This document shows positions 37,626 to 55,044 of a stretch of 64,000 nucleotides of DNA, piece by piece. The notes under the pieces were generated by a model that did not search any database, was not told the origin of the DNA, and was given only the letters and a program-made list of their open reading frames with translations. The position numbers were made by a program, and so were the translations under genes. Origin of the DNA: Actinomycetota bacterium (GTDB lineage Bacteria > Actinomycetota > UBA4738 > HRBIN12); NCBI GenBank assembly GCA_036374435.1, contig DASUTU010000153.1:7393-71392 (forward strand). Reading direction: 5' to 3'. Positions within the stretch are counted from its first letter, which is position 1. Every line of letters starts with the position of its first letter.

Positions 37626-37650
37626 CCTCGAACACGTGTTCGACTAAGGT
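37622..37650 (+). promoter_or_regulatory. recA promoter with embedded LexA (SOS) box: TTGACC - TCGAACACGTGTTCGA - c - TAAGGT
   Basis: Perfect 16-bp palindrome TCGAAC-ACGT-GTTCGA (37628-37643) lies between a -35 TTGACC (37622-37627) and a -10 TAAGGT (37645-37650). It is about 160 nt upstream of the recA ATG. Confidence 0.75.
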
Positions 37651-52615: not shown

Positions 52616-52667
52616 GTCGGTGCCCCCTCCTAGGCTTCGCGAAGGTACCACGGCGAGGAGGAGGATT

Positions 52668-52746
52668 CAAACATATGTTCGGTAGGGGCTTTGACGCCGA
52701 ACGTGCGTTCGATAAGATACCTGGCGTGAGCCGAACACGCGTTCGA
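52668..52746 (+). promoter_or_regulatory. three LexA/Cheo-type SOS boxes in the lexA / LysM-gene divergent region
   Basis: tcAAACATATGTTCgg (52668-52683, one mismatch), cCGAACGTGCGTTCGA (52697-52712) and cCGAACACGCGTTCGA (52731-52746). All fit GAAC-N4-GTTC, and the last two fit the extended TCGAAC-N4-GTTCGA form. Confidence 0.7.
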
Positions 52747-53034: not shown

Positions 53035-53661
53035 CTATCGCGGCAAGGCCATCGGTGCCGGCACCCCAACCAATGCCCGCCGCACCACCACCTCGTCCAC
53101 GATCCCGTAGTCCCTGGCCTGCTCGGGCCCGAGGATGAAGTCGCGCTCGGTGTCGGTGTGGATCTCATCGACCGAGCGACCGGTGTGTTCGGCCAGGATC
53201 TCCTCCACCCGCCGGCGCTGACGAAGGATCTCGCGGGCGTGGATCTCCAGGTCGGCCGACTGGCCCTCGATGCCGCCGTGGGGCTGGTGGAGAAGGATCC
53301 TCGAGTTCGGCAGGGCGAACCGTTTGCCGCGGGTCCCGGTGGCGAGGATCATCGCGGCCGCGGACGCCGCCTGGCCCAGGCAATACGTCGCCACGTCGGA
53401 CCTCAGGAACTGCATCGTGTCGTAGATCGCGAACAGCGCCGTCGAGGCGCCGCCGGGGCTGTTGACGTACAACGCGATGTCTTTGCCGGGCTCGACCGAG
53501 TCCAAGAACAGGAGCTGGGCGACCACCGTGTTCGCGACGGCGTCGTCGATCGGCTCGCCCAGGAACACGATCCGCTCCCGGAGCAGCCGCGAGTAGATGT
53601 CGAACGCGCGCTCGCCCCGCGCATTCTCCTCGATGACCGTGGGGACCAGCGTGCCGGGCAT
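53035..53661 (-). CDS. clpP: ATP-dependent Clp protease proteolytic subunit (solitary copy, not next to tig or clpX)
   Basis: SD AAGGAGG before [38 protein letters not shown]; catalytic Ser in [10 protein letters not shown]; His in LLHQPHGG; Asp later. Confidence 0.9.
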
Positions 53662-53693
53662 GGCGCCTCCTTGCGGCTGGGGCCCGGTACGAT

Positions 53694-53755
53694 GCAACCG
53701 TGCGGTTGCGGATCAGCCTACGACGCACGAGCCCGAAAGGCAACCGAACGGTTGC
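53694..53755. promoter_or_regulatory. two perfect 16-bp palindromes GCAACCG-NN-CGGTTGC, 46 bp apart, between clpP and the SRPBCC-ArsR operon
   Basis: GCAACCGTGCGGTTGC (53694-53709) and GCAACCGAACGGTTGC (53740-53755) are identical apart from the central dinucleotide. The first sits 33-48 bp upstream of the clpP ATG, the second about 25 bp upstream of the SRPBCC start. Confidence 0.55.
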
Positions 53756-53775
53756 GTGATCTGGTCGAGCGCTCG

Positions 53776-54114
53776 GTGGTGGTGCCCGCTCCTCGGCACG
53801 AGGTGTGGCGGGCGCTGACCAGCCTGGAGCTCGCCTCGGCGTGGCTGGGCGAGGTGGTCGAGCTCGAGGCACGGGCCGGCGGTACGGTGATCGTCCGCGA
53901 CGGGGACGGGACCACGCGCCGGGGGCTGGTCGAGCTGGTGGAGCCGGCCCGGTCGCTCGTCCTGCGGTGGCGCCGGCTGGCCGGCGCCGGACCGAGCCTG
54001 GAGGTCGGCGAGGCCACGCGGGTCGCGTTCGCGCTCGACGACGATCCCGGGGGCACCCGGCTCACCGTGACCGAGGAGCCGACGGCGCTGGTCGCCGTGG
54101 GAGGCGAACGGTGA
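53776..54114 (+). CDS. SRPBCC-superfamily (AHSA1 / polyketide-cyclase-like) small protein
   Basis: VVPAPRHEVWRALTSLELASAWLGEVVELEARAGGTVIVRDGDGTTRRGLVELVEPARSLVLRWR... is typical of Aha1/SRPBCC proteins paired with ArsR regulators. Start could be GTG 53776-53782 or TTG 53752. Confidence 0.6.
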   Translation: MVVPAPRHEVWRALTSLELASAWLGEVVELEARAGGTVIVRDGDGTTRRGLVELVEPARSLVLRWRRLAGAGPSLEVGEATRVAFALDDDPGGTRLTVTEEPTALVAVGGER

Positions 54115-54431
54115 CGGGGGAGCGAAGGGTGGACGCCGTCTTCTCGGCGTTGTCGGATCCCACGCGCCGGACCGTGATCCGCACGTTGTCCGAGGGCGGT
54201 CCGAGCACCGTGACCGAGCTCGCCGCGCGGCTGCCGGTCTCGCGCCAGGCCGTGGCCAAACACCTGGACGCGCTGGAGGCGGCGGGGCTGGTCTCGGCGT
54301 CGGCCTCGGGTCGGAGCCGCCACTACCGGCTCACCCCGGGACCGATGGCCGAGGCGATGGCGTGGATGACCGACGTCGGCGCCGAGTGGGACGAGCGCCT
54401 GGAGTCGCTCCGCCGGCTGTTCGAACCCTGA
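54111..54431 (+). CDS. ArsR/SmtB-family winged-helix transcriptional regulator
   Basis: GTG overlaps the SRPBCC stop (GTGA). VFSALSDPTRRTVIRTLSEGGPSTVTELAARLPVSRQAVAKHLDALEAAGLV. Confidence 0.8.
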   Translation: MTGERRVDAVFSALSDPTRRTVIRTLSEGGPSTVTELAARLPVSRQAVAKHLDALEAAGLVSASASGRSRHYRLTPGPMAEAMAWMTDVGAEWDERLESLRRLFEP

Positions 54432-54476: not shown

Positions 54477-54494
54477 CCACCACATCTAGTGCGG
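54477..54494 (+). promoter_or_regulatory. NrdR-box-like motif upstream of nrdR (CCACCACATCTAGTGCGG)
   Basis: Shares the core ACATCTAGTG with the two motifs upstream of nrdJ and resembles the CAC...ATAT...GTG-type NrdR operators. It is 13 nt before the nrdR start. Confidence 0.45.
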
Positions 54495-54993: not shown

Positions 54994-55044
54994 CCACCAC
55001 AACATCTAGTGGTCGGCGGTCGTGCCGCCCACTAGATATCCTGG
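54994..55044 (+). promoter_or_regulatory. pair of NrdR-box-like motifs in inverted arrangement upstream of nrdJ (..CACAACATCTAGTGG..n16..CCACTAGATATCCTGG..)
   Basis: ATCTAGTGG (55004-55012) and its reverse complement CCACTAGAT (55029-55037). Followed by a TTGACG -35-like hexamer (55052-55057) and a moderately AT-rich promoter region before the nrdJ SD. Confidence 0.5.

Follow-up and report, generated by a model that had tools for sequence, protein, structure and literature searches.

The stretch of DNA analysed here, a window of 64 kb, contains three genes arranged around a short intergenic region. A solitary clpP gene on the minus strand (53035-53661, 208 aa) diverges from two genes of the plus strand, namely a short SRPBCC/AHSA1 gene (53752-54114, 120 aa) and a gene for an ArsR-family winged-helix regulator (54111-54431, 106 aa). 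The clpP product matches Pfam CLP_protease (E=1.4e-75) and NCBIfam NF001368 (292 bits, cut-off 249), and its ribosome-binding site, AGGAGG, lies at 53666-53671. The SRPBCC protein is recognized by Pfam AHSA1 (E=4.5e-14), while the regulator is placed among the winged helix-turn-helix proteins by Pfam HTH_20/HTH_5 (PF12840, E=8.7e-14; PF01022, E=1.1e-10), exceeds the cut-off of NCBIfam NF033788 (75 bits against 55) and has 2OQG as its closest solved structure (E=7.6e-19). The GTG start codon of arsR overlaps the SRPBCC stop codon (GTGA, 54111-54114), and this start is fixed at 54111 because homologues begin MTGERRVDAVF. The adjacent, co-directional ArsR and COG3832/AHSA1 genes thus form one operon, and the pair is kept in most related loci, as judged by a tblastn match of the SRPBCC protein.

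About 90 bp separate the start codons of clpP and SRPBCC, and the middle of this gap is occupied by two palindromes, assigned to neither strand, which are predicted to be operators. Site 1, proximal to clpP (53694-53709, GCAACCGTGCGGTTGC), is an exact palindrome, and site 2, proximal to SRPBCC, lies at 53740-53755 (GCAACCGAACGGTTGC); both are conserved in relatives. The original prediction of twin perfect 16-bp palindromes, 46 bp or approximately 4.4 helical turns apart and flanked by clpP, an SRPBCC gene and an ArsR-family gene, is exact for this window: both sites are perfect 7-2-7 palindromes whose sole difference is the central dinucleotide (TG in site 1, AA in site 2), and the Pfam and NCBIfam profiles identify the flanking genes as claimed.

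The Predicted Operator Motif and Its Association with ArsR

Within the 64-kb window, no further match to the palindrome occurs even when up to two mismatches are allowed, and the two sites are likewise the sole matches to a relaxed 10-base core, GCAACNNNNNNGTTGC, which was found in none of 100 dinucleotide-preserving shuffles of the window. A chance origin of the twin sites is ruled out by this uniqueness in the window, together with the empty shuffles. Among relatives, nearly every mismatch is a C to T change at position 6 or a G to A change at position 11, and the variation of site 2 is confined to positions 6-11. Since positions 6 and 11 vary among relatives, the conserved core is defined as GCAAC-N6-GTTGC.

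The association of this motif with the regulator was approached from both ends. When 80 genome loci were picked solely by ArsR similarity, by alignment of homologues, GCAACC-N4-GGTTGC was found in one or two copies in most of them, 300-500 bp upstream of the ArsR match and just upstream of the SRPBCC gene. The 750-bp upstream regions of these loci (58 kb in all) hold 127 sites, 69 of them exact and 58 with one mismatch, and the remaining 645 kb of the same loci hold no exact site and two with one mismatch. In the opposite direction, metagenomes were scanned for two sites lying 8-36 bp apart, irrespective of which genes adjoined them, and at least 120 such loci were found. Profile searches of the flanks of the 120 loci listed revealed both ArsR and SRPBCC genes in 86, SRPBCC only in 19 (mostly at contig ends), ArsR only in four and neither in 11, so that 109 of those listed adjoin one or both genes. 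Several of the 11 loci with neither gene are situated at contig ends, and others carry DUF899 or clpP genes.

Most of the ArsRs at the listed metagenome loci are only 31-47% identical to that of the window and have no clpP nearby. As such distant, clpP-less ArsRs share the sites, the operator belongs to a broad ArsR-SRPBCC family and not to the window locus alone. Sites upstream of an SRPBCC-arsR pair are also retained at clpP-less genome loci of Kribbella (L085), Nonomuraea (L072) and Micromonosporaceae (L060) and at L018, and at a further locus (L075) they precede arsR alone. Across 157 site-linked ArsRs, the overall identity of which ranges from 31 to 100%, conservation of the recognition helix, TRQAVAKHL, reaches at least 90%. 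Two conjectures of the original prediction, that the motif would not be scattered at random and that the adjacent ArsR is the obvious candidate binder, have therefore gained support: the motif is near-absent from the 645 kb of flanking DNA, it tracks ArsR/SRPBCC in both search directions, it persists without clpP, and the recognition helix is conserved along with it. We regard the sites as predicted operators of the ArsR-SRPBCC family, physical binding being inferred from these patterns of conservation.

The palindromes could also act in RNA, as 5' stem-loops that stabilize the clpP mRNA or as structures that mask the SRPBCC start codon. Each site can indeed fold as a 6-bp stem with a tetraloop (-7.8 kcal/mol), and would be placed either at the 5' terminus of the clpP mRNA or across the start codon of SRPBCC. 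However, stem pairs 1-5 show not a single compensatory change in 139 sites, pair 6 is broken in 36 of these and reduced to a G-T wobble in 21, the loop varies freely, and no Rfam family is matched. Since the arms never covary, the pattern is that of a DNA operator, and the RNA reading has very little likelihood.

Several observations made during these searches concern departures from the usual arrangement. A distant ArsR group in Micromonospora has a variant with a 3-nt spacer, GCAACC-N3-GGTTGC, about 500 bp upstream of arsR (Micromonospora sp. CA-249363, locus L071, 4490-4520). At one of the 11 metagenome loci with neither match (L116, 1256-1486) a frameshift interrupts the SRPBCC gene beyond some 30 conserved residues, and a PpoB2/DUF2182-like membrane protein is encoded next, and at a genome locus (L016, 4022-4586) clpP matches occur in two frames; these may reflect decay of the cassette in some genomes, or assembly errors. 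Near the twin sites of eight metagenome loci without an ArsR or SRPBCC match, among them L095, L142 and L144, three of the 30 open reading frames scanned match the thioredoxin-like DUF899, and DUF899 genes may be further members of the regulon of the ArsR-SRPBCC family.

The clpP Cassette across Lineages

Divergent clpP lies directly upstream of the sites in approximately 66 of the 80 genome loci, and two sites are present in 54 of the 66 clpP-bearing loci scanned, one of which is a contig of a close relative (L003). The clpP/SRPBCC/ArsR cassette with its sites recurs in many soil Actinomycetota, which are labelled as Thermoleophilia (Solirubrobacterales and Gaiellales), Acidimicrobiia and uncultured Actinomycetes, and look-ups starting from ClpP gave the same cassette for all three homologues followed, at 84-85% identity. 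The genes outside the cassette vary from locus to locus, with 114 Pfam families beyond clpP and 111 beyond arsR, none of which recurs above 5-7 times. These outer neighbours were called by Pfam scans of candidate open reading frames, as a simple GC3-based caller is unreliable in DNA of high GC content. The cassette is accordingly not a strict two-gene unit, as divergent clpP is conserved while all outer neighbours differ. A fourth conserved gene, such as clpX, clpC or an adaptor gene, was found on neither side of the cassette. Downstream of arsR (loci L008-L087), FtsH-type genes (Peptidase_M41 with AAA) occur in four loci and histidine-kinase genes in six or seven; neither is counted as a member of the cassette, because too few loci carry them, although with the FtsH-type genes a protease theme appears again near arsR.

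The catalytic triad Ser100/His125/Asp174 is invariant in 81 ClpP sequences of the cassette, and the best match of the window protein in the PDB is 8R04. As judged by this intact triad, the window clpP product is a catalytically competent ClpP. Cassette ClpPs begin straight at the gating segment MPLVP, and hence lack a propeptide. In the canonical actinobacterial locus, clpP1 and clpP2 stand in tandem beside tig and clpX, and the original prediction had placed this clpP outside that context. The claim stands as regards clpP in the window and the neighbours of clpP in related loci: the window has a single clpP, with no second copy found anywhere in its 64 kb, and in related clpP-bearing loci neither clpX, nor clpC, nor a second clpP was found adjoining clpP.

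Predicted Promoter Geometry

A sigma-70 consensus scan called no promoter in the intergenic region, and for this reason the promoters are deduced from conserved TAnnnT hexamers. The predicted -10 element of clpP is TAGGCT on the minus strand (AGCCTA on the plus strand, 53715-53720), 5 nt from site 1. The corresponding AnnnTA, that is, TAnnnT on the clpP strand, is present between the sites in all 53 two-site clpP loci (background frequency 0.0007 per position), for the most part at a distance of 2-7 nt from site 1. Transcription of clpP is thus predicted to start at approximately 53707-53709, at the edge of site 1. On the same strand, a possible -35 element, TTGCCT (53738-53743), can be read from the sequence 17 nt upstream of the -10 element; it overlaps site 2 by 4 nt, and is a weak candidate. 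For the SRPBCC-arsR operon, the putative -10 element is TACGAT on the plus strand (53688-53693), which abuts site 1. A plus-strand TAnnnT occurs within 12 nt to the left of site 1 in 26 of the 53 loci, without any gap in 20, and lies between the sites in the remaining 27. In close relatives, every column of the intergenic region varies except those of the two sites, the A...TA that belongs to the clpP -10 element and the start codon of clpP.

The spacing of the sites from centre to centre clusters at 26-27, 37-38, 42-44 and 46-48 bp. Such varied spacing points to two independently bound dimers, set by the geometry of the promoters, and makes a fixed cooperative complex unlikely. In Solirubrobacterales loci with the longer spacings, TAGCAT or TATCAT stands ahead of site 2, the spacer of which contains an ATG that is apparently leaderless. 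In clpP-less relatives and in a metagenome class with 25-bp spacing, the order of elements is the textbook one of -35, site, -10, site and ribosome-binding site. If both predicted -10 hexamers of the window are in use, transcription of clpP and of SRPBCC would begin at facing points some 8 nt from each other, and the transcripts would share, within site 1 (53700-53709), a short stretch of complementary 5' sequence.

On this evidence, the twin palindromes are probably operators of the ArsR-family repressor encoded 0.4 kb downstream, through which both clpP and the SRPBCC-arsR operon would be controlled. The sites bracket the clpP -10 hexamer in 53 of 53 loci, and, with the clpP start codon, sites and hexamer are all that is invariant between the genes of close relatives, which is in keeping with the earlier suggestion of autoregulation combined with control of clpP. 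A narrower explanation is that the sites autoregulate SRPBCC-arsR only, clpP being an independently transcribed neighbour, and the many clpP-less ArsR-SRPBCC loci with the same operator pair are what one would then expect. Against this, the start codons are only some 90 bp apart with the sites in mid-gap, the clpP-strand -10 element falls between the sites at every two-site locus and is unchanged in close relatives, and clpP stays linked in several classes despite complete turnover of the outer flanks. Regulation of SRPBCC-arsR without clpP is therefore unlikely.

It might also be supposed that ArsR binds the sites but activates clpP, or represses one of the promoters while activating the other. 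The geometry speaks for repression, as the sites fall upon the regions predicted as -35, +1 and ribosome-binding site and do not lie upstream of -35, and clpP-less relatives carry theirs in the -35/-10 spacer and at +1, which is the arrangement of a repressor. The precedent for activation comes from Rv2034 of Mycobacterium tuberculosis, which is reported to regulate phoP, groEL2 and dosR positively (PMC3338718). We consider activation quite improbable here; repression rather than activation, like the positions of the transcription starts, is inferred from the arrangement of the elements, and the sign of regulation is uncertain because Rv2034 also activates some of its targets.

The SRPBCC Partner Protein

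The SRPBCC gene most likely starts at a TTG codon (53752) within site 2, rather than at GTG 53776, the start chosen by gene callers, since residues R7 and V9 (numbered from the TTG), which are nearly invariant among homologues, precede GTG 53776. The conserved protein comprises approximately 115-122 aa, its C-terminal end lies at the same point in all SRPBCC homologues, and longer entries are N-terminal over-extensions. Many database entries reach 137-160 aa (P0251, P0294, P0301 and P0334 among the homologues) only through a called start that crosses the operator region. From the start of the SRPBCC domain to the stop codon, the median length is 113 aa in clpP-linked proteins (n=84), compared with 142 aa in other ArsR-SRPBCC pairs (n=77). 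An AlphaFold2 model of the window protein (pLDDT 88, pTM 0.78) shows the strands of the START fold and two short helices, and ends after the last strand with no C-terminal helix, so that the START/helix-grip fold is incomplete. A Foldseek search with this model returned AHSA1/START proteins of 132-163 aa, including Ms6760 of M. smegmatis and the C-terminal domain of human Aha1. As modelled, the clpP-linked SRPBCC has lost its C-terminal (lid) helix. The idea that the C-terminal helix of ArsR complements the truncated SRPBCC was set aside, as the same C-terminal ArsR motif is conserved beside full-length SRPBCC partners.

Relation to Known Systems

Classical ArsR/SmtB proteins, such as SmtB, CzrA and CadC, bind as winged-helix dimers to inverted repeats that overlap promoters, whether of a divergent operon or of one downstream, and multiple operators per promoter are common among these metalloregulators. 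The window regulator differs from them in that it has neither the alpha3 Cys motif nor the alpha5 His/Asp/Glu site, and the genes it is predicted to control encode a protease and a START-fold protein, not a metal transporter. There is no Cys in its 106 aa and no His in its 30 C-terminal residues, which places the window ArsR, with Rv2034, among the non-metal members.

ClgR and PopR are Xre-type activators with a box of the CGC-N5-GCG type, and are themselves Clp substrates. Their control of clp genes in Actinobacteria was reportedly described by Bellier and Mazodier in 2004 and by Engels et al. in 2004. The window shares with these systems, in which additional ClpP paralogues are separately controlled, the assignment of a dedicated transcription factor to a clpP. 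Its candidate factor differs in being of ArsR type, with repressor geometry and a different motif, and no ClgR-type CGC-N5-GCG box was found upstream of clpP (53640-53780), so that the motif is, as anticipated, not the ClgR operator.

The closest functional precedent is Rv2034, a dimeric autorepressor insensitive to Zn, Ni, Co, Cd, Pb, Cu and Mn (PMC3338718), and its relatives MSMEG_6762 and MAB_3862 have been named alongside it. In Rv2034-Rv2035(-Rv2036), as in the window, an ArsR without canonical metal sites shares one operon with an SRPBCC/polyketide_cyc2 gene, and a further source treats the Rv2034-Rv2035 system (bioRxiv 10.1101/2022.05.14.491971). The Rv2034 footprint extends from -30 to +3 of its own promoter and contains a single 20-bp inverted repeat, CCGTAAGT-N4-ACTTACGG, and the divergent neighbour is Rv2033c (PMC3338718). 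Both systems have, at the promoter, an inverted repeat whose arms are separated by 4 bp, and at the predicted promoters of the window it takes a 6-4-6 form. The half-site, however, is not CCGTAAGT but GCAAC(C), as in GCAACC-N4-GGTTGC, and the window has two palindromes where the Rv2034 promoter has one. In addition, the gene order is reversed, with SRPBCC first in the window, the window SRPBCC is without its C-terminal helix, and no clpP has been reported beside Rv2034.

Makarova, Wolf and Koonin (2009) described ArsR proteins without metal-binding motifs that are paired with COG3832 (Aha1/START) proteins, a combination which is scattered in its distribution, expanded in Actinobacteria and proposed to be a toxin-antitoxin (TA)-like or mobile stress/antibiotic-response module (PMC2701414). 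In mycobacteria, ArsR-COG3832 is treated as a putative type II TA system (bioRxiv 10.1101/2022.05.14.491971, PMC8165232), a status that is a proposal only in the literature (PMC2701414, PMC8165232). By its sequence, the window regulator is a member of this metal-insensitive ArsR-COG3832 pair family, and the window-type operator is common to distant pairs of the same family. The module of 2009 was a strict two-gene unit for which no operator was given, whereas in the clade described here a third conserved gene, clpP, is added and the COG3832 protein is shortened. In the literature, we found nothing that links clpP to the ArsR-SRPBCC module or gives the motif sequence. Three features appear to be new, namely the sequence of the operator, the constant linkage with clpP and the absence of the C-terminal helix from the SRPBCC partner.

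Proposed Mechanism and Significance

If the twin sites are operators of the adjacent ArsR, one ArsR dimer would bind each GCAAC-N6-GTTGC site. Site 1 would cover the regions where transcription is predicted to start from two divergent promoters that overlap, and site 2 the -35 region of clpP together with the ribosome-binding site and start codon of SRPBCC, so that the occupied pair would shut off both clpP and the SRPBCC-arsR operon. As occupied sites would silence SRPBCC-arsR, we propose that the operon is autoregulated. The regulator, having no Cys, shows no obvious sensory residues; a non-metal signal would release it from the DNA, switching on a solitary and catalytically competent ClpP, and the SRPBCC protein may serve as its sensor or partner.

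In Actinobacteria, few regulator modules are more abundant than ArsR-COG3832 pairs, and views of them range from a TA system to an antibiotic response. For this family, GCAAC-N6-GTTGC is a sharply defined candidate operator that can be used for regulon prediction in any genome. The clade identified here would have its ArsR-COG3832 module wired to a concrete output, a ClpP protease with an intact triad, and loss of the SRPBCC lid helix goes together with this wiring. For Clp biology, the proposal is a repressor-based circuit for a solitary clpP, distinct from the ClgR/PopR activators, in which the twin sites link an obscure regulator family to the control of proteolysis. The proposed circuit occurs in the poorly studied Thermoleophilia and Acidimicrobiia and in uncultured Actinomycetota, and cultured carriers exist, such as Svornostia abyssi J379 (L063) and Solirubrobacter (L034); NZ_CP088295.1 is one of the complete genomes with the cassette.

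A more speculative and rather doubtful extension is that the cassette of clpP, helix-less SRPBCC and ArsR constitutes a self-contained, inducible proteolysis switch. In one version, a TA-like ArsR-SRPBCC pair may both control its own ClpP and be processed by it, which would provide feedback or bistability. A review figure on candidate protease substrates covers TA families of M. tuberculosis, ArsR-COG3832 being one of those listed, and Rv2035 has been found in the pupylome (PMC8165232). In another version, the open START-fold protein may sense or sequester a hydrophobic xenobiotic and thereby turn on a spare ClpP; if true, this could afford inducible protection against ClpP-targeting natural products in soil, and self-resistance through an additional copy of clpP is known (PMC12607617, PMC13243586).

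LexA- and NrdR-Type Sites around the Cassette

In the window, the gene trio is flanked on one side by lexA and a LysM gene and on the other by nrdR and a gene for a class II ribonucleotide reductase, and it is only in the lineage of the window that lexA and nrdR go with the cassette. This neighbourhood raises the question of another binder of the palindromes, be it LexA or NrdR, ClgR or an unlinked global factor. The boxes of the LexA type (52667, 52697 and 52731) and the NrdR-like boxes (54477, 54997 and 55029) are, however, separate from the palindromes and of different sequence, and dozens of genomes have the cassette with its sites and neither lexA nor nrdR nearby. LexA, NrdR and ClgR were rejected as binders, given the separate boxes of the first two, the missing ClgR box and the movement of the cassette independently of lexA and nrdR; an alternative binder of any kind is extremely improbable, and the cassette's own ArsR is retained as the candidate.

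The NrdR-box-like sequences CCACCACATCTAGTGC, CCACAACATCTAGTGG and CCACTAGATATCCTGG (54477-54492, 54997-55012 and 55029-55044) precede nrdR and the gene for the class II ribonucleotide reductase. The intergenic region between lexA and the LysM gene holds three LexA-box-like palindromes, TCAAACATATGTTCGG, CCGAACGTGCGTTCGA and CCGAACACGCGTTCGA (52667-52682, 52697-52712 and 52731-52746), and an exact TCGAACACGTGTTCGA is present elsewhere in the window, at 37628-37643. These LexA-box-like sequences, in the lexA/LysM intergenic region and at 37628, are probably SOS operators.
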